In this document: piece after piece, positions 9,643 through 22,239 of the stretch
Numbering within the stretch: the stretch's first letter is position 1
Layout of the letters: each line of letters starts with the position of its first letter
Assembly (NCBI GenBank): GCA_035937905.1
Contig: DASZHK010000107.1
Location: forward strand, 536-64,535
DNA length: 64,000 bases
Source: Acidimicrobiales bacterium
Lineage (GTDB): Bacteria > Actinomycetota > Acidimicrobiia > Acidimicrobiales > RAAP-2
Direction: 5' to 3'
Program-made: the position numbers and the translations under genes
The notes under the pieces: generated by a model
Databases searched by the model: none
Told to the model about the DNA's origin: nothing
Seen by the model: only the letters and a program-made list of their open reading frames with translations

Positions 9643-10542
9643 ATGGTGAAGAACGCCGAGGACGACGTGAGGTGTGAAATTGTCAAAGGTTTCACGCGCG
9701 ACATCCTTCGCGTTGCCGAGAAGAACATCAAGGTGGCGGACTTCACCGTGCGGAACAACAATCGAGAGGGTGTCCCCGATGACCCGGAGTCAACGCGCAG
9801 GATCCGACTGGCATTTCGCCGTATCCGCTACCAGTTGAAGACGATGTCCACCGTCGATAGTTCTCTCGGCGCGGAGTTCCTCATTGGACGACTACGCGAC
9901 GTCGGCAAGCCTTTCGGTCGACTTCGCGACGCAGAAATTCTTGAGTCGAGCGTTACTAAGGCGTTGGGCGACCGCGCCAACACCGCGCAAGGCCAACAAC
10001 TCTTGGACATTGCCGCGCACGCTCGCAGAGTCGAACAACAGACCACCGATCACCTTCTACACTCAAACGCGTATCAAGAGAATCTCACTGAGGTGAGCAA
10101 GTTTCGACGGTCCTTACCTTCTCGTCATTCGACACCCGAAACGTTGCGACCATTGGCGGAGCGCGCGATGCACGCCTCATGGCGCGAACTTCGCCGGTCG
10201 GCCCTCAAAGCGAAGCGACATCCCTCAGACGCCAATCTGCACGAGACACGAATAGCCGCCAAGCGAACCCTCTACGCCGCCCAAGCGCTTTCGGACGTCC
10301 TCGGTGCTTCGGCCAAGGAGTTCGTACGCTCCGTTGACGCAATGCAGAAATATCTGGGTAAGCAGCACGACCTCGCCATAGCGTCGAAGTGGTTCACACA
10401 AGTATCGAAGGACTACCCCGCCCTCCACGGTCTCGCTCGATCACTCGCTCGCGAAGAACGGCGACGTGCGGACCAACGATCAACGCGCTGGACGAAGTAC
10501 TGGAAGACGCTCGAGGCTCAAAAGGCCACGAGGAAGTGGTGA
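9643..10542 (+). CDS. CHAD domain protein (polyphosphate-binding)
   Basis: 'DPESTRRIRLAFRRIRYQL', 'GRLRDAEI', 'LHETRIAAKR..YA', 'LGKQHD'; AGGAGGT 9 nt before ATG 9643. Confidence 0.85.
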   Translation: MVKNAEDDVRCEIVKGFTRDILRVAEKNIKVADFTVRNNNREGVPDDPESTRRIRLAFRRIRYQLKTMSTVDSSLGAEFLIGRLRDVGKPFGRLRDAEILESSVTKALGDRANTAQGQQLLDIAAHARRVEQQTTDHLLHSNAYQENLTEVSKFRRSLPSRHSTPETLRPLAERAMHASWRELRRSALKAKRHPSDANLHETRIAAKRTLYAAQALSDVLGASAKEFVRSVDAMQKYLGKQHDLAIASKWFTQVSKDYPALHGLARSLAREERRRADQRSTRWTKYWKTLEAQKATRKW

Positions 10543-10575
10543 GGCTCGCGTATCGCAGCATCGACCCGACGCTGT

Positions 10576-11571
10576 CTAGATCTTGCCAATGATGGAGTCG
10601 CGATAGGCGTCGATGGTGGCGCCGGGTTGGTCGTGCATGAGATAGAGCGAGAACTGATCCACGCCAAGTTCACTCAACTCGCTGAGACGATCACGATGTT
10701 GCTCAATGGTCCCTAGTACGCAGAAGCGATCGATCACCTCGTCGGGTACGAACTCGGCGTCGGGGTTTCCCGTCTTGCCGTGGTGGCGGTAGTCGTAACC
10801 CTTACGTCCTTTGATGTACTCGGTGAGCGCAGGCGGAACGATGTTCGAGTCGTCGCCGTAGCGTCCGACGATGTCGGCGACGTGGTTGCCCACCATGCCA
10901 CCGAACCAGCGAACTTGATCGCGCTGGTGTGCGAGGTCGTTGCCCACGTACGCGGGAGCAGCGACGCACACCCGGTAGTCCTCGGTACTTCGACCGGACG
11001 CTTGGAGAGCCTCCTGCGCCGTTTCGATCGCCCACCGGACGACGAAGGGATCAGCGATCTGGAGGATCAGTCCGTCCGCTTTACTGCCCGCAAGTTCCAA
11101 CGCCTTCGGACCGTAGGCCGCCATCCAGACGTCAAGGTGGCCGTCCGCCACCCACGGCATCGAGACGGATCTCCCGTTGATGAGAGCCTCACGTCCCTCG
11201 ACGAGTTCTTTGATGACGGTCATGCACGACGAAAGTGTCGCGAGCGTGGCAGGCTTTCCGCCAGTCACGCGAAGTGCCGAGTCGCCGCGACCGATACCGC
11301 AGATCGTCCTCGGACCGAACATCTCGTTGAGCGTGGCGAAGAGAGACGCCGTCACGGTCCAGTCGCGCGTGATCGGGTTCGTCACCATTGGTCCCACGAT
11401 GATGTGATCGGTGGCGCCGAGTATCTGGGAGTAGATGACGAAGGGCTCCTGCCAGAGCACCACGGAGTCGAACGTCCAGAAGTGAGAGAACCCGGCGTCC
11501 TCGGCGCGCTTCGCGAGCTCGATGACGTCTTTCGCCGGTGCGTTCGTCTGCGCGACGAGACCGAAGTCCAT
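10576..11571 (-). CDS. F420-dependent LLM oxidoreductase, TIGR03842 (CPS_4043) family
   Basis: 'MDFGLVAQT', 'WTFDSVVLWQEPF', 'VTNPITRDWTVTAS', 'WFGGMVGNHVAD'; third gene after nitrilase and hydA. Confidence 0.88.
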   Translation of the reverse strand: MDFGLVAQTNAPAKDVIELAKRAEDAGFSHFWTFDSVVLWQEPFVIYSQILGATDHIIVGPMVTNPITRDWTVTASLFATLNEMFGPRTICGIGRGDSALRVTGGKPATLATLSSCMTVIKELVEGREALINGRSVSMPWVADGHLDVWMAAYGPKALELAGSKADGLILQIADPFVVRWAIETAQEALQASGRSTEDYRVCVAAPAYVGNDLAHQRDQVRWFGGMVGNHVADIVGRYGDDSNIVPPALTEYIKGRKGYDYRHHGKTGNPDAEFVPDEVIDRFCVLGTIEQHRDRLSELSELGVDQFSLYLMHDQPGATIDAYRDSIIGKI

Positions 11572-11635
11572 TACGCGCTCCGGCTGAGCACGATCGTCCC
11601 TACGCACTCACTATTCTGAGCAAACTTGAGCTCGT

Positions 11636-13039
11636 TCATCGGAGATAGCCGTTGAGTCCGCGGCGTAGGAACTGGCCGTAGCCCTTGCGCCCCACGTACT
11701 GATCGTTCTCAATCACGACGGTTCCTCGCGACAGCACGGTCTTCACCTGACCTTTCACCACCATTCCTTCGTACGCCGAGTAGTCGACGTTCATGTGGTG
11801 GGTCTCAACCGAGATCGTGTGCGTGGCGTTCGGGTCGTAGAGCACGATGTCCGCGTCCGATCCCGGCGCGATGAGTCCCTTCTTTGGAAAGAGACCGAAC
11901 ATCCTCGCCGGCGTCGTGGCCGTGACGTCCACCCAACGCGCGAGGGAGATCTCGCCAAGGGCGACGCCTTGGAAGATCAAGTCGACCCGATGCTCGATCC
12001 CAGGGATGCCGTTGGGGATCTTTGAGAAGTCGCCCAGCCCGAGTTCCTTTTGCTCTTTGAAGCAAAAGGGGCAGTGATCCGTTGAGACGATGCTGAGGTC
12101 GTCGGTGCGAAGACCTCTCCAGAGATCGGCGTGGTGGTGCTCGGGTCGAAGTGGTGGCGAGCAGACGTACTTCGCGCCTTCGAATCCCTCGCGCGCGAGG
12201 TCGGCGTCCGAGAGGAACAGGTACTGGGGACAGGTCTCGGCGAAGACACTCTGTCCACGGTCCCTCGCCTCGATCACTTCGTCGAGCGCTTCGGCGGCGG
12301 ACAGGTGAACGATGTAGAGCGGCGCGTGCGTGACGAGCGCCAGTTGAATAGCGCGGTGCGTGGCCTCACCTTCGAGCGCCACCGGCCGGGTCAAGCCGTG
12401 GAATCGAGGACTGCCCTCCCCCCTCGCGAGCGCTTGTGCGACAAGTACGTCGATGGCGATCCCGTTTTCCGCGTGCATCATGATGGTCGCACCGTTCGAG
12501 GAAGCCTGCTGCATGGCTTGGGTGATCTCGCCGTCGGTGGAGTAAAAGACACCGGGGTAGGCCATGAACAACTTGAAACTCGACAAACCTTCGTCGACGA
12601 CGAGGTCCATCTCCTTTAGCGACGCCTCGTTCACGTCGGACACGATCATGTGAAAGCCGTAGTCGACCGCGCAGTTACCTTCCGCCTTCGCGTGCCACGC
12701 GTCGAGTCCCTCTCGCAAACTCTTACCTTTGGACTGAATCGCGAAGTCGATGACCGAAGTAGTACCGCCGAAGGCCGCCGCGCGCGTGCCCGTCTCGAAC
12801 GTGTCCACTGAGTGGGTGCCTCCAAAGGGCATCTCGAGGTGGGTGTGACCGTCAATCGCGCCGGGGATCACGTACTGACCACTGGCGTCGATGATGCGGT
12901 CCGCGCCGACGCGCCAGAGTTCTGACGTCGTCGTGCCCGGCCCGGCGAGTCCAACAATGACGTCACCGTCGATGAACACGTCGGCCGCGAAGGGACCGCT
13001 CGCGTTGATGACGGTGCCGCCACTGATCAAAGTCTTCAT
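11636..13039 (-). CDS. hydA: dihydropyrimidinase
   Basis: 'PGAIDGHTH', carbamylated-Lys 'SSFKLFMAY', 'MMHAENG', 'VSTDHCPF', 'PNGIPGIE'. Confidence 0.95.
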   Translation of the reverse strand: MKTLISGGTVINASGPFAADVFIDGDVIVGLAGPGTTTSELWRVGADRIIDASGQYVIPGAIDGHTHLEMPFGGTHSVDTFETGTRAAAFGGTTSVIDFAIQSKGKSLREGLDAWHAKAEGNCAVDYGFHMIVSDVNEASLKEMDLVVDEGLSSFKLFMAYPGVFYSTDGEITQAMQQASSNGATIMMHAENGIAIDVLVAQALARGEGSPRFHGLTRPVALEGEATHRAIQLALVTHAPLYIVHLSAAEALDEVIEARDRGQSVFAETCPQYLFLSDADLAREGFEGAKYVCSPPLRPEHHHADLWRGLRTDDLSIVSTDHCPFCFKEQKELGLGDFSKIPNGIPGIEHRVDLIFQGVALGEISLARWVDVTATTPARMFGLFPKKGLIAPGSDADIVLYDPNATHTISVETHHMNVDYSAYEGMVVKGQVKTVLSRGTVVIENDQYVGRKGYGQFLRRGLNGYLR

Positions 13040-13074
13040 GGAACGTTTCTGCTTTCTTTGAGTAACGGCGAGGA

Positions 13075-13935
13075 CTAGGGAGCGACCAAGCTTCCGTAAC
13101 TGTCAGGTCGTCGGTCACGGTAGAAGGCCCAAGTGTGACGGACCTCTTTCAAGACGCCGAGATCGAGGTCGCGCACGATCACCTCGTCGTCGGTGTCCGA
13201 CGCAGCGTCGCCGACGAGTTGACCCCGGGGATCGACGAAGTACGAGGATCCATAGAAGCTGTTGTCGCCGAGCTCTTCGACGCCGACGCGGTTGATGGCC
13301 CCGACGAAGTACTCGTTGGCGACGGCGGCGGCCGGCTGCTCGAGATTCCAAAGGTAGGCGGAGAGCCCGCGACTCGTCGCCGAGGGGTTGAAGACGATCT
13401 TCGCGCCCGCAAGTCCGAGGGCGCGCCACCCTTCGGGAAAGTGCCGGTCGTAACAGATGTAGACGCCGATGGGGCCGACGGCCGTCTGAAAGATGGGATA
13501 ACCGAGGTTGCCCGGGCGAAAGTAGAACTTCTCCCAGAAACCCTTCACCTGGGGAATGTGGTGCTTGCGGTACTTGCCCAAGTACGTCCCGTCGGCGTCG
13601 ATGACGATCGCAGTGTTGTAGAAGACGCCCTCTTGTTCCACCTCGTAGATCGGCACGACGAGCACCATGTGGGTCTCTCGGGCCAACGCCTGCATCAACT
13701 CCGTCGTAGGTCCCGGGATCGACTCGGTGTAGGCAAAGTACGAGGGGTCTTGGACCTGGCAGAAGTAGGGACCGTAGAAGAGCTCTTGAAAGCAGAGGAC
13801 CTGCGCTCCCTGGTTGGCCGCTTTTCGAGCCAGCGCCACGTTGGCGGCGATCATCGATTCCTTGTCGCCGGTCCACTTCGTCTGGACGAGGGCGGCGCGA
13901 ACGATCTCGGTGGTGGTATCCGCTGGAGTAGTCAT
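13075..13935 (-). CDS. nitrilase-family beta-ureidopropionase (N-carbamoyl-beta-alanine amidohydrolase)
   Basis: E-K-C triad: 'FQELF', 'YRKHHIP', 'ICYDRHFPE'; start moved to ATG 13935. Confidence 0.9.
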   Translation of the reverse strand: MTTPADTTTEIVRAALVQTKWTGDKESMIAANVALARKAANQGAQVLCFQELFYGPYFCQVQDPSYFAYTESIPGPTTELMQALARETHMVLVVPIYEVEQEGVFYNTAIVIDADGTYLGKYRKHHIPQVKGFWEKFYFRPGNLGYPIFQTAVGPIGVYICYDRHFPEGWRALGLAGAKIVFNPSATSRGLSAYLWNLEQPAAAVANEYFVGAINRVGVEELGDNSFYGSSYFVDPRGQLVGDAASDTDDEVIVRDLDLGVLKEVRHTWAFYRDRRPDSYGSLVAP

Positions 13936-14079
13936 TCGCTTCACCTCGAAGTTCAGTACAACGCGGACATGCCGTACGAAAATCTCCTGAGTCAAAGGTA
14001 CTTTCGACCAGATTCGGATACTAGACCCGAACGTGCCTCGCTTCGTACCTTCGCCGTCGCCTGGACGTAGGGTCAATCT

Positions 14080-14520
14080 ATGAACGTGAAACGACACGGC
14101 ATCGATCTCGGGTTCAAGGTGATGAACACCACGCACCGAGCGGTCCTACTCCTGAGCGCCGGCCGTGTAGGGCGATCGATCAAGGGCAAGCCCATGGTCG
14201 AATTACTGACCATCGGGCGAAAATCTGGAATGGTTCGATCCACCATGTTGTTGGCGCCCGTCGTCGACGGTGCTCGCGTCATCCTCGTCGCGTCCAAAGG
14301 TGGCGACGACCGCGACCCCGACTGGTATCGCAATCTCCTGGCTCATCCGGACGTCGAACTGACCATGAACGGCGAGCAACGTCCGATGCGTGCGCGCCCG
14401 GCGACGCTTGAGGAAGAAGGACAACTGTGGCCCCGGGTCGTCGAGTCGTACAAGGGTTACGCGACTTACCGTGAACGTACTACTCGCGACATCCCGCTCG
14501 TTGTCTGTGAGCCGCGCTAG
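14080..14520 (+). CDS. F420H2-dependent deazaflavin nitroreductase (DDN family)
   Basis: 'LLTIGRKSG..R', 'VASKGG...PDWYRNL..HP', 'TRDIPLV'; TAGGGT 6 nt before ATG. Confidence 0.9.
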   Translation: MNVKRHGIDLGFKVMNTTHRAVLLLSAGRVGRSIKGKPMVELLTIGRKSGMVRSTMLLAPVVDGARVILVASKGGDDRDPDWYRNLLAHPDVELTMNGEQRPMRARPATLEEEGQLWPRVVESYKGYATYRERTTRDIPLVVCEPR

Positions 14521-14841
14521 GAGTGCAATCGCTGCGTCTCTTTTGTTGAGGCAGTCTTCCGCACACTGTGATGGATGGATGAATTCGGACACGAAGATTC
14601 ACTTTGCTCGATCGCCACTTCACTGACGTTCAATTGAATGACTACGCCAAGATCATTTCGCGGAGACCTTAGAAGTTCCAGCTAGTGGTGAGGAACGTTC
14701 TCTCCGCACAAAGTGCCGAGAGAACGTTGAACTACTTCTAAACAAATTCGAAACCATCTCTCAGCCATCCAACAGCGCCTTCACATCACTCTCACAAATG
14801 CGCTCTCTACTCTAAGAACTGTTCCTGTGAAGGGAGAACAT

Positions 14842-15585
14842 ATGAAGCACCTAACTACAAAATCCATGGCAGTGTTCACACTCGTCGCCGCCATGGGCAT
14901 CAGCATCCCAGCCGTTGCGTACGCGGGCTCACCGCCTTCGTCGGGAGCCAACTCAACGCCAGCCGATTCAAGCGCAAGCTTCCTCACAGCACAAAAGGCT
15001 CTCGAGCTTCAACTTGCTAATCGCGCCACACAACTTCAGCACCTCGTCACCGACGTCACCGCAGCGACGTCGCTCAACGCAAGTGCTTCGACGACGCTGC
15101 AAGCACGTCTGTTGACCGAGGAAGCAAGCATCAATTCGCTCGTCGCGAAGGTGCCAACGGACACGACCAGGGCTGAGCTCAACACGGACCGCAACGCGAT
15201 GCTCAAGGACAACCGCGTGTACGCCGTGATGTCTCCACAGGTGTTCGAAATGATCGAAGCATCGGTGGTGGCGAATCAGGTCGTGACGCTGCAGGGAAAT
15301 GAGGCGACACTCCAGTCGGAGGTCGCGTCCATCTTGGGTCTTCCGGGCTACAAGAACGCGCTTAACCACTACGACAATTACGTCGCTCGCCTTTCCAACT
15401 GGTCAACAAGGATCGTGAACATTGAGGCGATCGTGCTCGCCCAGACGCCGCAGGGTTACCCCGGTAACACCAAGTCGTTCGTCGCCGAGAATCACGCCAT
15501 CCTCGAAGCGAACATTGCCCTTTCATACGCTTCATACGACGCGAGCATCATTGGTCTCGCGACGGGCGGTTACACCGGCGCGTAG
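14842..15585 (+). CDS. secreted helical hypothetical protein
   Basis: Sec-type signal peptide, S/P-rich linker, amphipathic helices; AAGGGAG upstream of ATG 14842. Confidence 0.8.
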   Translation: MKHLTTKSMAVFTLVAAMGISIPAVAYAGSPPSSGANSTPADSSASFLTAQKALELQLANRATQLQHLVTDVTAATSLNASASTTLQARLLTEEASINSLVAKVPTDTTRAELNTDRNAMLKDNRVYAVMSPQVFEMIEASVVANQVVTLQGNEATLQSEVASILGLPGYKNALNHYDNYVARLSNWSTRIVNIEAIVLAQTPQGYPGNTKSFVAENHAILEANIALSYASYDASIIGLATGGYTGA

Positions 15586-15618
15586 GACGTGACGCTTGAA
15601 CTGAAACATTGAAATCCG

Positions 15619-15658
15619 AATATGGCGGTTGGTGGCATAGGTCATCAACCGCCATATT
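15619..15658. terminator. hairpin between convergent secreted-protein gene and tRNA-Arg
   Basis: AATATGGCGGTTG ... CAACCGCCATATT 13-bp perfect inverted repeat. Confidence 0.7.
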
Positions 15659-15720
15659 TGAATTCGCTTCAACCTTTGACATCGGCACACACAGACGACG
15701 TTCTTATAACTGAGGGAGAT

Positions 15721-15751
15721 GGCCTTGGCCCCACCTATTGGGGTCAAGGCC
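15721..15751 (-). terminator. hairpin immediately 3' of tRNA-Arg
   Basis: GGCCTTGGCCCCA-cctat-TGGGGTCAAGGCC, 13-bp stem with one mismatch/wobble. Confidence 0.65.
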
Positions 15752-15754
15752 AGT

Positions 15755-15829
15755 TGGTGCCCCCGGCAGGATTCGAACCTGCGCTCACGGTTTAGGAAAC
15801 CGATGCTCTATCCCCTGAGCTACGGGAGC
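15755..15829 (-). tRNA. tRNA-Arg(CCT)
   Basis: Cloverleaf GCTCCCG/CGGGGGC acceptor stem, anticodon loop TTCCTAA, TTCGAAT T-loop, encoded CCA. Confidence 0.97.
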
Positions 15830-16035
15830 TTCGCCCTTTTGTTCCATTCTTGCATGCGTGTGCAGACACCGATTAATTGCTGAAAGGACTGTGATGTCAG
15901 TTCTCGCAAGCTTGGGCCACTTGGCCCTGGGCGGACCGCGCGCCCGCAGCGAAGTGTCGAGGAGCGAACAACGCCCCTGTGACATACCCTCTCAGGCGTA
16001 ATCTCCTTACGTATTTCAAGAAATTCAGCCAATGA

Positions 16036-16356
16036 TCACTCTGGACCATCTTCAACTGATGGAGCCGAGTCGATGAGACTTAGAATTTCTTTAAGTGAAG
16101 ATTCAACTTCCTTATCGTCGGTCTGTGCCAAAATTTCTTGTCGATGATCAATACGTGATGCATTCACAGTCTCGATTTTCAGCCACCGCCAACGTAACCT
16201 AGCGACCCAGACGTGATCCGATACGTCATCCAGATTGTTGATCAAACTCTTCAGGTCAGAACTAAGTTCATCGAGAGGTATCTGCCCATATTCAAATTCA
16301 ACGATTGCCTTTCTCAATAAATCGAGAAGGAACTTCTGCCGTTCAACGTCTATCAA
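16036..16356 (-). CDS. hypothetical acidic helical protein, putative polymorphic-toxin immunity protein
   Basis: 106 aa; TTG start overlaps TGA of upstream toxin-like stub; AT-rich. Confidence 0.65.
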   Translation of the reverse strand: MIDVERQKFLLDLLRKAIVEFEYGQIPLDELSSDLKSLINNLDDVSDHVWVARLRWRWLKIETVNASRIDHRQEILAQTDDKEVESSLKEILSLIDSAPSVEDGPE

Positions 16357-16454
16357 TGTGGATTCAACGCTCCCCTTGAAACCGTAATGATTTTTCCGTC
16401 TTGTGAGACGACACTTATGTTGTTTTGGTCACTGTAATGAATGACCGGCGCTCT
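16353..16454 (-). pseudogene. start-less C-terminal fragment resembling a polymorphic toxin tip
   Basis: Manual translation RAPVIHYSDQNNISVVSQDGKIITVSRGALNPH*; bounded upstream by in-frame TAG at 16455-16457. Confidence 0.5.
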
Positions 16455-16500
16455 CTAGCGGTCAGCAGGTAAGACTAAGTCGCTGTACCATACTCCGAGC

Positions 16501-17046
16501 ATGCTTGATATCACTCACGGCGAATGGGTTGAGCTGCACTTGGGCGTTGTTGGCTCTCCATCGGGTAGCGGATTGGTCCTTCTTGACGGCGACGAGGACG
16601 AAACCCGCGTCGTATTCAGAGGGTACGCGCCTGACTTTGAATCAGACGATCGGCGTGAGGCGTTGGCCATCATCACGGCGAAAAGGTGTCTGCAAAGCGT
16701 CTTCGGCTATCCGAATGAGGAAGCCTATTGGCTTGACGAGCGCGGAAGTCTAGGAATCGGAATTTACGAACTCATAGGCTCGATGTGGGCCGAAAATGTT
16801 GCGATCTTCAATGACCGCACATATTGGCGTGACAAGCAGGAGCATCGGGATTTCTTGGCAAGCCACGGCATCTCCGAAATGGGACCTATTCACTCAAGTC
16901 AGCTGCGGCACTTCTTCATTGGATCAAAGGACTCCTCTGTTCAGTTGCTGGCCGAGGAGTTGCTGGTCGAAATCATCGATGGTAAGTCATTCGGTGAAGT
17001 CATCAGCGAAGCGGTTCATCGAATGCTGAATTCGACGTGCGACTAA
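16501..17046 (+). CDS. hypothetical protein ('FGYPNEE...LRHFF' family)
   Basis: 181 aa, CATACT 6 nt before ATG (leaderless), natural acidic composition. Confidence 0.7.
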   Translation: MLDITHGEWVELHLGVVGSPSGSGLVLLDGDEDETRVVFRGYAPDFESDDRREALAIITAKRCLQSVFGYPNEEAYWLDERGSLGIGIYELIGSMWAENVAIFNDRTYWRDKQEHRDFLASHGISEMGPIHSSQLRHFFIGSKDSSVQLLAEELLVEIIDGKSFGEVISEAVHRMLNSTCD

Positions 17047-17308
17047 TCAGTGAATCCCTATCGCTCCCGACCGCACGTATCTAAGGCGCCAGTGGAAGGT
17101 GGCAGACCTGGCATGTCGACTCTCCGACAGTAACCCGCACCCACTACAAAAGCCAGCACAACCTCAGCACAACATTTGTTGAGAACGGTGGCGAAGGGTG
17201 AAGTACAATTGACACTCTTGGCTTGCACCGAAGTAGCGCTTCATCAGCAGTTTTGGCTAAACAAACGGGATCGGGCATCGCCTCAATCAGGCTGCCAATA
17301 CAACTTTT

Positions 17309-17342
17309 GAAACCGATGCACTCTCCCCTGGGCTACGGGAGC
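17309..17342 (-). pseudogene. displaced 5' half of tRNA-Arg(CCT) (att-like remnant)
   Basis: GCTCCCGTAGCCCAGGGGAGAGTGCATCGGTTTC vs tRNA GCTCCCGTAGCTCAGGGGATAGAGCATCGGTTTC (3 mismatches); ends at tRNA position 34. Confidence 0.85.
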
Positions 17343-17584
17343 AGTCTCCATTATCTCAACCCTTTTGCGAGACGTGAAAATGGTTGTGAAGCAGTTCCAA
17401 GGTACAGGCGGATTCGTGAGTCGTCCTTTATTTCCAACAACAGGTGGACGCGTTGATGGCATTCGCATCAATTCGGTCAAATTCTGACGTCGTACCATCA
17501 TGGTGATTGCGAAAACCGAGTCAGTCGGGCCGAACCAGATCAGATCCGACGTCCCACGTGACGCAGCACGCGAAAAGGAGAACC

Positions 17585-18223
17585 ATGTTCGAACGATTCA
17601 CTGACCGATCCCGGCGAGTACTCGTACTCGCGCAAGAAGACGTACGTGAACTCAACCACGACTTCATCGGTACTGAACACGTGTTGCTCGGGCTGATCCG
17701 TGAAGGTGATGGAATCGCCGCAAAGACGCTCAGTGCCGCAGGTGTTAATTACGACGCGGTTCTCAAGAAGGTTGAGGAGCGGCTGACCCGCAGCTCCGAC
17801 CCATCGCCTGGTGCACCACCATTCACGGAGCGAGCGAAGAAAGTACTGGAGCTGTCGCTTCGTGAAGCCATGCAGCTTGGTCACAACTACATAGGCACGG
17901 AACACTTGCTGCTCGGACTCCTTCGAGAGGGAAGTGGAGTGGCGACCCAGATCCTCCGTGAGCTCGATGTCGAACTGACACATGTCCGTGAGAAGGTCAT
18001 CGAGATGATGTCGGGTCAAAGTGGGAGTGTGTCTAGCGGTTCACGGACATCGGGGCAATCTGATTTTCAAATTCTCTTCGGCGTCGTGCGCAGGACCGGT
18101 CAACAGTTGCGTCCCGACCTTGGTTCACCCGAGTTTTCCGAGCGAGCAGCGAAGATTGCCGATGCTCTCTTCAACCAACTCCGTAAGGACTGGATCGCAC
18201 CTGACGACCCCCTTGAACCGTAA
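17585..18223 (+). CDS. Clp N-terminal domain-only protein (ClpC2-like)
   Basis: 'MFERFTDRSRRVLVLAQE', two 'H.YIGTEH.LLGL'-type repeats, no AAA+ domain; AAAGGAG before ATG 17585. Confidence 0.88.
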   Translation: MFERFTDRSRRVLVLAQEDVRELNHDFIGTEHVLLGLIREGDGIAAKTLSAAGVNYDAVLKKVEERLTRSSDPSPGAPPFTERAKKVLELSLREAMQLGHNYIGTEHLLLGLLREGSGVATQILRELDVELTHVREKVIEMMSGQSGSVSSGSRTSGQSDFQILFGVVRRTGQQLRPDLGSPEFSERAAKIADALFNQLRKDWIAPDDPLEP

Positions 18224-18326
18224 CGCTGAGTGAAGCGGAATCCAATCCGCGCGAGACGAACCTCGAAATGAGATTTGGCACCACTGCGTTTTCTTGGTGG
18301 AACCCTTATGCGCGTAACGTCGCGAC

Positions 18327-19898
18327 GTGGCAGCAAACTCATCGTTGAACCGACGAACTTTCCTTAAACGGCTGCTCCAGGTGTCGGCCCTGTCGTCGAC
18401 CGCGTTAGCCACGTCGCCACAGGGCCCAGATGGTGGTTCGCTGGCTGCGAGAGTGGCGAAGTTGAAAAGCCTGTCTTCGTCCGGGTGGAGAGAACTTTCT
18501 TCTTCCTTACGAGGTTCGCTCGTCTTGCCATCATCGCCCGGCTACGCAACGAGAGCCCTGCTGTATAACTCGAGATTCGCCAACCTAAAACCGGCCGCGA
18601 TTGCCTACTGTCAAGGCTCGGATGACGTCGCCGCGTGCCTCGACTTCGTCGTAAAGCACGACCTTCCCTTCACGACGCGCTCGGGTGGCCATAGTTACGG
18701 CGGCTACTCCAGCTCTCCGGGTCTCGTCATCGACGTCAGTCGACTCGTGACCATTGACGTTGACGCACAAGCAAAAACGGCCAAGGTTGGCACCGGCGCG
18801 CGACTCATCGACGTCTACAACACGCTCGATCACCACGGGCTCGTCCTGCCAGGTGGCACCTGTCCCACGGTGGGCATCGCCGGCTCGACAATGGGCGGCG
18901 GTGTCGGTGTGTTGGCGCGAAAGTTCGGTCTTACCTGCGATCACCTCATCGGCTCTCGTCTCGTCACCGCCTCTGGTGACCATATTGTCGCCAACGCCGA
19001 TCACCACGCAGACCTCTTGTGGGCAGTGAAGGGAGGCGGCGGCGGAAACTTTGCCATCGCGACCTCGTTCGAGTTCGAGTTGGATCCGATGCCACCCACC
19101 ACGCTGTTCTCGTTGCAGTATCCCTGGAGCGAAGCGGCCGCCGTGCTCGAGGGATGGCAACAGTGGATCAATGCCCAACCCGATGAACTGTGGTCGACCT
19201 GCCAACTCTTCTCCCAAGGTACGGCCGGCTTCCTCGTTCAAGTAAACGGTGTCTTCTGTGGTCCTGAACGCGCTCTCGATACGCACCTGGCTTCGCTCCG
19301 GTCGCTGGTTGGCACTGCGTCGTCGACGTTCGTGGGCGCCGACGCTTACCTTGAGGCGATGAAGATCGAGGCCGGCTGTTCAAAGCTCACCGTCGTCGCG
19401 TGTCACCTCGCCGGTGACGGGCCTGGTGGACTTCTTGGCCACGAGGCCTACGCCGCAAAATCTTCCTACGTCACCACGCCGAACACTCGAGGTCGTACCA
19501 GTGAGTGGGTTCACGCCGTCGAAGTGCTGGCCGCCGAGGCCCCGTACGTGGGCGGGGGCCTGTCGTTTGACTCCTACGGCGGCGCCATAAACCGCGTCGC
19601 GAGGGACGCGACGGCCTTCGTGCACCGCGACAAACTCGCGGGCGTCCAGGCCGCGTACTCCTGGGGAACCCACTCATCGAGTGACGAGATCGCGGCGGGA
19701 GATCGTTGGCTTCGATGGTTGGGCAGTGAAGTCTTTGACGCGCGTGCCGGGGCCTATCAGAATTACATCGATCCGACACTCCGCAATTGGCAAGACGCCT
19801 ATTACGGAGCAAACTTTGACCGACTCATTCGCGTGAAGAACATCTATGACCCCGACAATCGATTCTCGTTCGCTCAGTCAATTCCTCTGCGTCGCTAA
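18327..19898 (+). CDS. Tat-exported FAD-binding oxidoreductase, berberine-bridge-enzyme-like
   Basis: 'NRRTFLK' Tat motif; 'RSGGHSY', 'GTCPTVG', C-terminal 'YQNYID...AYYGANF.RL..VK..YDPDNRF'. Confidence 0.88.
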   Translation: MAANSSLNRRTFLKRLLQVSALSSTALATSPQGPDGGSLAARVAKLKSLSSSGWRELSSSLRGSLVLPSSPGYATRALLYNSRFANLKPAAIAYCQGSDDVAACLDFVVKHDLPFTTRSGGHSYGGYSSSPGLVIDVSRLVTIDVDAQAKTAKVGTGARLIDVYNTLDHHGLVLPGGTCPTVGIAGSTMGGGVGVLARKFGLTCDHLIGSRLVTASGDHIVANADHHADLLWAVKGGGGGNFAIATSFEFELDPMPPTTLFSLQYPWSEAAAVLEGWQQWINAQPDELWSTCQLFSQGTAGFLVQVNGVFCGPERALDTHLASLRSLVGTASSTFVGADAYLEAMKIEAGCSKLTVVACHLAGDGPGGLLGHEAYAAKSSYVTTPNTRGRTSEWVHAVEVLAAEAPYVGGGLSFDSYGGAINRVARDATAFVHRDKLAGVQAAYSWGTHSSSDEIAAGDRWLRWLGSEVFDARAGAYQNYIDPTLRNWQDAYYGANFDRLIRVKNIYDPDNRFSFAQSIPLRR

Positions 19899-19936
19899 CA
19901 CGGATCAGACGACAGCGCACCTTCCCACGTTGGGGA

Positions 19937-20542
19937 TTAGGCGCGTGTGGGATCAAGTCGTCTAATCACGTCTCGCAACGTCGATACCAGATCGGCCGAA
20001 CTCGCCCGATGGTAAATCGGACCCGTGCCGTCACTCAGCAAGGAGTTAGCCATCGCCACGCCACGCGACGTCGGCAGGGGCGCTAACAGAGCGTCCACGA
20101 GAGTATGAATGAGTGCGTTCGCGTCGTTCACGCGGTCACGAAGGGGCGGAACACCGACCGCGCCACGTCCCGACGAATTGCGTGCTTCAACGAGCAGAGC
20201 GAGCCAGTTGTCGGCCAATTTTCTTCGTCGGGCCTTCGAGACGATGAGTTGAGCTCGCGCGGCGAGCAGCTCGCTCGTCTCGGGACCGCGACCGGCGGCG
20301 AGTTTGTTGTCGAGTGACGCACCAAGTACGCGGGCCCCTACCAAGACCCTGAGAGGAACATCCACGGCGCGAGGCGCCTGCGACACGATCGTCTCGACTC
20401 GCGGCCACGACTCTTCCGCGCCCGGGTTCACGAAGTGACCGCGGACCTCTCGGTTCTTCGTTCGGCGCTCGTGGCGACGTACTCTCGCCGCCTCGCGTCT
20501 CCGTCCACGGTTTGAAAACTTGAACCAATTATCGATGCGCAT
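19937..20542 (-). CDS. hypothetical protein
   Basis: 201 aa with SD (CAGGAG) before ATG; C-terminal 'GVAMANSLLSDGTGPIY' pattern seen in actinobacterial hypotheticals. Confidence 0.65.
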   Translation of the reverse strand: MRIDNWFKFSNRGRRREAARVRRHERRTKNREVRGHFVNPGAEESWPRVETIVSQAPRAVDVPLRVLVGARVLGASLDNKLAAGRGPETSELLAARAQLIVSKARRRKLADNWLALLVEARNSSGRGAVGVPPLRDRVNDANALIHTLVDALLAPLPTSRGVAMANSLLSDGTGPIYHRASSADLVSTLRDVIRRLDPTRA

Positions 20543-20778
20543 TCTTTACTCCTGGGGGAATCTGTTACTCACAATGCTTGCTTGCTCGTTTAAGAAAACT
20601 TCTAAAAAATCGTTCGAAACTCGTCATAATTTCTTAACGATGCGTTCGTCTTGACGCACGCAAGCATCCTTTCCATCGCGACCGCGTGATGCACGCCGCG
20701 ACGGAGCGGATCGATACTCGACTAAAAGTTCACTCGTGTGAAATTCGCGCTCTTCAGCACCAACGTGCAACGGCGGCG

Positions 20779-22239
20779 CTAGTGAACCAACTGCGGCTCG
20801 GCGACACGACGCTTTGACATGCGAGCGACGGTGAAGACCAGGCCGACCAAGGAGATCGCCGCAACCACGGTGATGGCCGTCGTCATACCGGGCAAGAGTT
20901 GCCCGTGACGCGCGGCGGTGGCGCCAGGCCCGATGATGGCGGTCGTCACCGCGAGGACGATCGCTCCGCCGACTTGGATGCTGGTGTTCACGAGGCCCGA
21001 GGCGAGGCCCTGTTCGTGATCCGCTATACCCGCGGTCGCTTGGGAGTTGATCGACGGAAAGCAGAGTGCGAAGCCGACGCCGAGGAGCACCATCGTGGGC
21101 AGCAAGAAGTTGACGTAGGGCATTCCGGGGTTGACGCGAAGAAAGAGGAGGTAGCCAACGAGGAACGCCGCCAATCCACCCGCGATGAGGTTCGTCGTTT
21201 CGAAGCGCTCGAGTATTGCCGCCATCTTGGTCGAGCTCGCGACGACGATCAAGCCCGTGGGCAAGAAGCCCATGGCCATGGCGAGAGGCGACCAGTGCAG
21301 TGAATCCTGGAGGTACAGCGTCGCCACGAACTGGAACGACATGTAGCCGCCGAACATCACGGCGCCAGCGAGGTTGGCGTGCACGAGCGACGCCGAGCGA
21401 AGGATGCCGAGACGAAGCAGTGGTCGTGGGTGACGTCGTTCGATGACCACGAAGGTGACCAGTAGTACAGCGGTTGCAACGAGTCCACCCAGTGTGCCGA
21501 CACTCATCCAACCACGTGCCGGAGCTTCCACCACGGTGAAGACGAGCAACATCAGTCCCGCGGTGCTCGTCAAGGCACCGAAGAGATCGAAGTGCCCAAG
21601 TGAGACGCGCTCTCTCGTCGCGCGAGGAATCACTCGAAGTCCTGCCGCGACCAAGGCCAACGCAACGGGCCCTGGGACCAGGAACGTTGCGCGCCAGCCC
21701 AGCTCGGTGAGCAGTCCCCCGAAGACAAGTCCGAGCGAGAAGCCGCTGGCCCCGCACACCGTGTAGATCGAGAGTGCGCGGTTGCGAGCGATCCCTTCGG
21801 AGAAGGTCGTCGTGATGATCGAAAGTCCGGCTGGAACGGTGAAGGCGGCCGACGCACCCTTGATGAAGCGCAGCGCGATCAACGCCGCGTCGTTGCTGAG
21901 AAAGGCACTCACGACCGACGCGACACCAAAAACGGTCACCGCGGTGAGGAAGACGGAGCGCCGCCCGAGGAGGTCGCTCGCGCGACCACCGAGCAAGAGA
22001 AGTCCCCCGTAGCCGAGGACGTAACCACTCACAATCCACTGCAACGCGCTGGCACTCAAGTGGAGGTTGCGACCGATGGACGGGAGGGCGACGCCGACCA
22101 TCGAGATGTCGAGGCCGTCCAGGAAGAGGGCTCCGCAGGTGACGACGAGGAGGATCCAGATTGCGGTGGTCCAGCGGGTGTCGCCGTCGACGGGCTTTGA
22201 GGGGGAAATTGGCATGACGAAAAGTATATGTGTATACAT
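20779..22239 (-). CDS. MFS transporter, DHA2 (EmrB/QacA-like)
   Basis: 14-TM pattern, 'LDISMVGVALPSI', 'GGRASDLLGRR'; alternative start ATG 22215. Confidence 0.9.
   Translation of the reverse strand: MYTHILFVMPISPSKPVDGDTRWTTAIWILLVVTCGALFLDGLDISMVGVALPSIGRNLHLSASALQWIVSGYVLGYGGLLLLGGRASDLLGRRSVFLTAVTVFGVASVVSAFLSNDAALIALRFIKGASAAFTVPAGLSIITTTFSEGIARNRALSIYTVCGASGFSLGLVFGGLLTELGWRATFLVPGPVALALVAAGLRVIPRATRERVSLGHFDLFGALTSTAGLMLLVFTVVEAPARGWMSVGTLGGLVATAVLLVTFVVIERRHPRPLLRLGILRSASLVHANLAGAVMFGGYMSFQFVATLYLQDSLHWSPLAMAMGFLPTGLIVVASSTKMAAILERFETTNLIAGGLAAFLVGYLLFLRVNPGMPYVNFLLPTMVLLGVGFALCFPSINSQATAGIADHEQGLASGLVNTSIQVGGAIVLAVTTAIIGPGATAARHGQLLPGMTTAITVVAAISLVGLVFTVARMSKRRVAEPQLVH

Follow-up and report, generated by a model that had tools for sequence, protein, structure and literature searches.

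Classical integration into the anticodon loop of a tRNA gene is reportedly among the sublocation classes that Williams distinguished in 2002. In that mode the block of sequence shared by element and chromosome ends in the anticodon stem-loop, at a symmetric site. The locus described here has the same kind of block end and the same symmetry and differs from the classical mode in that the integrase lies on the 5' side of the tRNA gene and the 5' half is duplicated. Recombination in the 5' part of tRNA genes is "considerably less frequent" than in the 3' part (Krupovic et al. 2019, PMC6563490), where Zhao & Williams 2002 is given as the precedent from bacteria, and the rules of the Islander pipeline allow a 5' fragment upstream of the gene (PMC4383910). 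Given this precedent and this rule, replacement of the 5' end is a rare but documented kind of integration. Because the element takes over the 5' portion of the tRNA gene, it must bring a promoter, and the displaced 5' fragment comes to lie upstream. Here we analyze a stretch of 64,000 nucleotides from an Acidimicrobiales bacterium (contig DASZHK010000107.1; hereafter the window) in which an intact tRNA-Arg(CCT) gene is preceded in this way by a displaced copy of its own 5' half. We conclude, with a probability of about 0.8, that this scar is a multi-layer relic of mirror-image integrations by tyrosine integrases into tRNA-Arg(CCT); the integrations would have numbered at least two and probably three, with deletions afterwards. 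Unlike the documented 5' mode, the case concerns uncultured Acidimicrobiaceae, two integrase families that are dissimilar by BLASTP at a single tRNA, and a relic that is layered and lacks an integrase.

The intact tRNA-Arg(CCT) gene lies at 15755-15829 on the minus strand, as called by ARAGORN. It is full length and scores 64.9 bits against the Rfam tRNA model, as is expected of a target gene that integration regenerates whole, and it is the only gene with a CCT anticodon among the 44 tRNAs of the genome assembly. A search of the window that allowed up to 3 mismatches to tRNA positions 1-34 returned exactly two copies, one inside the gene (15796-15829) and one at 17309-17342, both on the minus strand; 100 shuffles of the sequence yielded 0 copies. 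The second copy, which we call the orphan half and regard as a dead attachment-site relic, is situated 1.48 kb upstream of the intact gene. Its mismatches are T12C, T20G and A23T, and because positions 12 and 23 pair and now read C.T, its D-stem is broken. The initial annotation had described the copy, its strand and distance, its three mismatches and the damaged stem in the same terms. It had also taken the homology to stop at the first anticodon base. That stop reflects decay: in the ungapped continuation (17305-17308) positions 35-36 have changed from CT to AA and positions 37-38 still match, and in well-preserved relatives the shared repeat runs from position 1 to about 38-42. The direct repeat, a 5' fragment upstream of the gene on the same strand, has the layout of a 5'-fragment island, and its end falls in the anticodon stem-loop, a recognised crossover sublocation. 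An independent metagenome contig from the Joint Genome Institute (JGI), 99.9% identical over 10000-21359, carries both copies, so the arrangement is not an assembly artefact.

We compared the locus with 194 species genomes of the same uncultured Acidimicrobiaceae genus. Repeats of the 5' half on the same contig and strand occur in at least 12 of them (G000, G007, G010, G020, G058, G094, G107, G116, G117, G135, G194 and G200). A second 3' half of tRNA-Arg(CCT) was seen on the same contig in G059 only and on a separate contig in G057. As the initial annotation had anticipated, relatives carry larger elements with an integrase at this tRNA. In G020, whose genome is a single contig, two copies of the 5' half bracket an element of 10.6 kb. 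It encodes a 384-amino-acid (aa) tyrosine integrase, IntA, whose gene begins at a distance of 49 nt from tRNA position 1 and points away from the tRNA, and which adjoins a RepSA protein of the pSAM2 type (Pfam RepSA, E=3e-110). G058 also has a pair consisting of a tyrosine integrase and a pSAM2-type RepSA. Homologues of IntA at E<=1e-80 were found in 12 genomes. In nine of these the distance from tRNA position 1 to the start of the integrase gene, which reads away, is 48-70 nt, and one more copy, which is truncated, lies 360 nt away, bringing to 10 of the 12 the number beside the tRNA 5' end. A 460-aa tyrosine integrase, IntC, has no BLASTP similarity to IntA and is likewise found at the tRNA 5' end, at a distance of 148-388 nt and reading away, in 4 of the 7 IntC-bearing genomes.

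Both families have cousins that integrate classically, in this very loop of tRNA-Arg(CCT). In G057, an integrase with 39% identity to IntC is situated downstream of the tRNA, and the displaced 3' half there starts at TTTTCCTAA, in the loop. In G026, an integrase 33% identical to IntA is accompanied by 3'-half repeats, likewise in the classical orientation. What appears to be new from this genus is that two integrase families use the mirrored mode at one tRNA, each with cousins that integrate classically. The elements of G020 and G058 also resemble integrative and conjugative elements from actinomycetes (AICEs) of the pSAM2 type, which combine a tyrosine integrase with RepSA and integrate into tRNA genes; tandem accretion at an Arg-tRNA gene is known for AICESav3728 and AICESav3708. 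Unlike pSAM2-type AICEs, the G020 element has no FtsK/TraB-like transfer gene among its scanned open reading frames (ORFs), and in the window it is the 5' half that is duplicated and the 3' half that is single. We do not file the intact relatives as AICEs, because no transfer gene was found in them and the tRNA end used for attachment is the wrong one. The window itself contains neither an FtsK/TraB-like transfer gene nor RepSA.

The sequences upstream of tRNA and half copies sort into three types, which we refer to as presumed native, IntA and IntC. The presumed native type, ending in CGCGCGGAGCTTCGCGCGGAAGTCCC, directly precedes the intact tRNA in G045, G059, G099, G078, G098 and G094, and G020, G010 and G007 have it at the farthest displaced half; it is probably the native promoter region. 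The IntA type ends in AAGATTGGAGCAAAGGGTCGAA and includes the start of the integrase gene, and the IntC type holds the motif GTTGTGCTGAGGTTGTGCT. Directly after the displaced half, distal arms contain CTAATCCGAAGA in IntA islands and CTAAATCGTTCTGGCACCC in the IntC island of G010. Each element type has its own proximal and its own distal arm, and the block that they share therefore ends in the anticodon stem-loop. G010, the nearest relative as judged by the genes downstream of the tRNA, shows that the 5' half is truly exchanged: its intact gene begins GCCCTCG and both of its displaced halves begin GCTCCCG, a difference that places the crossover 3' of position 5. Starting from the tRNA, the G010 array comprises an intact IntC island, an orphan half beside the start of an IntA pseudogene, a second island, and a half with the presumed native promoter.

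We found arms of both element types in the window. The 24 nt immediately upstream of the intact tRNA (15830-15853, minus strand), which would form its present promoter region, read GCAAGAATGGAACAAAAGGGCGAA and constitute the stub of an IntA-type proximal arm. Together with the tRNA, these 24 nt are 91-96% identical to the IntA-side junctions of G020, G135, G063 and G116; in the alignment the homology to IntA elements ends at about -27, and there is no integrase beyond. An extended -10-like sequence, TGcAAGAAT, is located 16 nt before tRNA position 1, and other IntA-type arms have the corresponding hexamer at this distance too. The only tRNA-Arg(CCT) of this genome thus appears, from its upstream sequence, to be driven by an element-derived stub. 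The gene is best read as a chimera whose 5' half and promoter are of mobile-element type; its 3' half is presumably the resident copy, no marker of its origin being present in the genome. The proposal of the initial annotation that an element supplied a new 5' half and promoter and then lost its integrase is supported by this IntA-type promoter and by the integrase-bearing elements of the relatives.

The two flanks of the orphan half also match element arms, of different types. Directly 3' of it, on the minus strand, 17083-17308 is a distal (P') arm of IntC type. The region is 80% identical over 260 nt (E about 1e-62) to G010:C45:34586-34845, the distal end of the IntC-bearing island that adjoins the middle orphan half of G010, and it includes the IntC-arm hallmark GTTGTGCTGAGGTTGTGCT at 17154-17172, a motif that is also present in IntC proximal arms. 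On the other side, 17343-17487 aligns with IntA-type arms and is a decayed proximal arm of that type. It contains a vestigial integrase start on the plus strand, with its ATG at 17380 and 35 codons. The encoded peptide begins MVVKQFQGTGGFVSRP and has conserved residues in register with the IntA N-terminus MATRRSYGTGSLVERP; scored against a matrix of the IntA N-terminus, it comes 3rd among the roughly 128,000 six-frame positions of the window. The vestigial ATG is 37 nt from the orphan half, which is the usual 49 nt minus a 12-nt alignment gap. The flank of the G194 orphan half is homologous to 17343-17487 (75% identity, z=12). The relation of this flank to IntA is seen only with longer arms, with the G194 homologue and in the peptide test; weak at the DNA level, the proposed link rests on that homologue, the peptide rank and the spacing. 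With a decayed IntA-type arm upstream and an IntC-type distal arm downstream, the orphan half is element-derived and not native. The view that it is the original chromosomal half, with a native promoter or one from the side of the Clp_N gene that now lies beyond it, is accordingly abandoned.

These arms can be accommodated in a model of mirrored integration. The attachment site of the element, attP, would consist of the element promoter, tRNA positions 1 to about 42 and the distal arm, and strand exchange with the chromosomal gene would occur in the anticodon stem-loop. The exchange would place the resident 3' half behind the promoter and 5' half of the element, creating a working gene beside the integrase, and would push the former 5' half and its promoter to the far end of the element. 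Since each arrival would repeat the exchange, the newest element would adjoin the gene; repeated integrations would build tandem arrays that deletions then erode. In the window, an IntA-type element would have brought the half that is now the orphan, leaving its arm and integrase start at 17343-17487. An IntC-type element would then have displaced that half, and its distal arm would survive at 17083-17308. A further IntA-type junction, at 15830-15853, would now drive the tRNA. Finally, deletions would have removed every integrase, with 1.25 kb and two cargo ORFs remaining. We infer this order of events from the position and type of the arms. No tyrosine integrase is found between or beside the repeats in the window, where the 35-codon vestige at 17380-17487 remains; because relatives do have an integrase in this position, we consider the window a relic, probably unable to recombine, and not a working member of the group.

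A simpler history would be the single event envisaged by the initial annotation, in which one element displaced the native 5' half with its native promoter and decayed to 1.48 kb. Such an event is the most economical, the genome has only two copies of the half, and G020 and G007 provide relatives with a single island. The ends of the island in the window, however, differ in type, with an IntA-type promoter at the tRNA and an IntC-type distal arm at the orphan half. Moreover, the upstream flank of the orphan is unlike the upstream region conserved in the genus and bears an integrase-start vestige at the expected place and in the expected register. The scar is therefore layered, with arms of both types mixed, and we judge a single event to be improbable. 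Mixed ends would also arise if tandem IntA- and IntC-type elements had recombined into one mosaic island, in which case two layers would suffice and a third integration would not be needed. Exchange between neighboring attachment sites is plausible, because they share an identical core of 34-42 nt and tandem arrays are common, and there is no decayed IntC-type 5' half inside the island of the window. Yet arm types are matched wherever both ends can be read, IntA occurring with the TCCGAAGA arm and IntC with an arm of the window type, and deletion of the middle half explains the data equally well. We regard this hybrid as credible but unlikely.

A further rival is that the tRNA gene was duplicated locally in tandem, after which one copy decayed and foreign DNA was inserted; the homology of both orphan-half flanks to the arms of integrase-bearing elements elsewhere speaks against it. 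Although the two copies are close together and on the same strand, the window has no trace of a second 3' half, and this half-gene repeat encloses integrase elements in many relatives. Plain tandem duplication, which the initial annotation had set against its own proposal, was not seen, and the element-arm homologies refute it for practical purposes. Another idea is that the orphan half has been kept for a function, as a putative promoter-driven small RNA resembling a tRNA half or as a candidate antisense RNA to ORF181, one of the two ORFs between the copies. The arrangement is stable in two independent samples, and an extended -10 promoter-like site does lie 7 nt upstream of the half, where the initial annotation had placed it. 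Our scan recovered this site (TTCACG-17-GATAAT with TG, 17378-17350, minus strand), but the single match compares with 1.6 expected from shuffles and is not significant on its own. The motif is, in addition, part of a decayed element arm with a 12-nt deletion, the half itself has a broken D-stem and a mutated anticodon, and orphan halves in relatives are by-products of integration. Retention for function is, in our view, very unlikely.

Several observations weigh against layered integration, which we nevertheless favor. At the DNA level, the comparison of the orphan flank with canonical IntA arms gives a z of about 3.6, within the shuffle range, and the 60-nt upstream profiles built for each arm type left this flank unscored. 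The window has no integrase, excisionase or replication gene, and activity of an element in it is thus not demonstrable. Two genomes, G107 and G094, carry the presumed native upstream type in duplicate, and it may thus be non-chromosomal in some cases. An allele without 15830-17342 was not found in this or closely similar species, and the JGI contig, from a sister strain, has the same arrangement; nor did the genus yield a pair of occupied and empty genomes with both flanks alike. Synteny upstream of the tRNA is poorly conserved across relatives, and the gene that flanks the G020 site upstream lies on contig C189 in this genome. The initial annotation had expected an empty site in which the promoter of the Clp_N gene is joined directly to the intact tRNA. 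A search of the genus with 17040-17585 returned only the orphan half of G194. Alignment did reveal empty-looking alleles, with the intact tRNA joined to the conserved upstream region in the six genomes listed above, but that region differs from the Clp_N side of the window.

For the genus as a whole, we tentatively propose, at somewhat less than even odds, that the IntA and IntC lineages each have members that target the same anticodon loop, with some members replacing the 3' part and others the 5' part of the tRNA. On this proposal the reversal would have arisen at least twice at a single symmetric site, the sole tRNA-Arg(CCT) gene of many species would be chimeric and driven by an element promoter, and arrays of orphan halves would record the order of invasion. 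The main value of the relic is the genus-wide system to which it points. In 5' replacement, the promoter of a host tRNA and here also a portion of its mature sequence must come from the element. Once the element has died, as in the window, a single-copy tRNA is still dependent on mobile DNA. The genus includes empty-looking sites, intact elements of two families, classical cousins, tandem arrays and eroded relics, and thereby lends itself, as a natural series, to the study of integrase orientation flips and of host takeover of element promoters. For annotation, orphan 5' halves upstream of tRNA genes mark island boundaries that methods centered on 3' fragments can miss.

The DNA between the two copies has a G+C content of 42-53%, compared with about 58-64% in the flanks, and is as AT-rich as had been reported initially. 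The claim that it holds only orphan genes applies to one of its two ORFs. ORF106 (16036-16356, minus strand; local G+C 42%) is an AT-rich ORFan that we interpret as island cargo. It has no Pfam, NCBIfam or PHROG match, and its only database relative is a 99% copy in the sister-strain contig. A toxin stub considered before ORF106 was read in translation only; no homologue supports it, and we rejected it. ORF181 (16501-17046, within a cassette at 16476-17118, plus strand) encodes a conserved hypothetical protein that has 26 homologues, the top ones 77-84% identical, and matches no Pfam, NCBIfam or PHROG family. Copies of the 643-nt cassette, at 81% identity, occur in unrelated variable stretches of other metagenome genomes. 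Two such copies (L083:4811-6546 and L084:1919-3654) lie beside Fic and HicB-like genes, just after a cluster of ribosomal-protein, SecY, Adk and Map genes, a setting that suggests that ORF181 is a small mobile or defence-associated gene.

On the far side of the orphan half, the present neighbor of the scar is a gene for a 212-aa protein with a Clp_N domain (17585-18223, plus strand; Pfam Clp_N, E=1.5e-32). It is found near tRNA-Arg(CCT) in G006 and G146 and not in most relatives. The Clp_N gene is outside the attachment site, and the integrase formerly in its place is gone. In the relatives, a conserved gene for a 113-aa protein, oriented away from the tRNA, adjoins the presumed native region in G045, G098, G099 and G007; we guess that its product is a winged-helix-like protein, and the gene is absent from this genome. 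The presumed native upstream regions of G045, G059 and G098 (L025:3152-3225, L026:3068-3140 and L038:3309-3380) consist of 2-3 tandem CGCGCGGAGCTTC-like units. In G059 the layers seemed to be in reverse order, an observation that we set aside because the orphan half of that genome borders an NN gap in the scaffold. The 5' strand of the acceptor stem reads GCTCCCG, GCCCTCG or GCCCCCG according to its source (L014 in G010:C45, L016 in G006, and window 15823-15829). Because the 3' strand, CGGGGGC, is constant, a swap of the 5' half moves or removes a U.G wobble (3-70 versus 5-68).

The islands of the relatives differ in their contents. The cargo of the G020 element (L013:7169-14310) combines copper and thiol-disulfide functions and comprises VKOR, AhpC/thioredoxin-like, PCuAC, CtaG, SCO1 and DsbD proteins, an M48 peptidase with a BlaI-like repressor and a RhuM/Fic protein. 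In the 49-nt spacer between IntA and the tRNA of G020 (L013:3923-3971), a TAGGGT hexamer lies 6 nt before the integrase ATG. This spacing fits a leaderless IntA mRNA transcribed back-to-back with the tRNA, and promoters so placed may compete. In G007 and G117, mini-islands (L015:3269-4483 and L022:5445-6656) occupy the 2 kb between 5'-half repeats. They carry only a gene for a HipA-like kinase toxin (HipA N-terminal domain, E=3e-20), with no integrase, and may depend on mobilisation in trans or be relics that addiction has preserved. In G194, a 14-kb island extends from the orphan half to the tRNA, and adjacent ORFs resembling tyrosine recombinases (L088:5167-6933), with a match to a SAM-like N-terminal domain, take the place of IntA or IntC.

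Among the other integrases of this genome, none is an IntA relative above 35% identity and none matches IntC at E<=1e-3. Outside the window, at C23:525-2988, an integrase 34% identical to IntA is paired with a RepSA 52% identical to that of G020, which suggests another pSAM2-like element at a different site. Between a 252-aa gene and the 3' end of tRNA-Arg(CCT), the window has a long, near-perfect hairpin at 15601-15672 (ATATGGCGGTTG...CAACCGCCATAT). Rfam reports microRNA matches to it on both strands, which are spurious; the tRNA is the sole genuine Rfam match, and the hairpin may be a bidirectional terminator.

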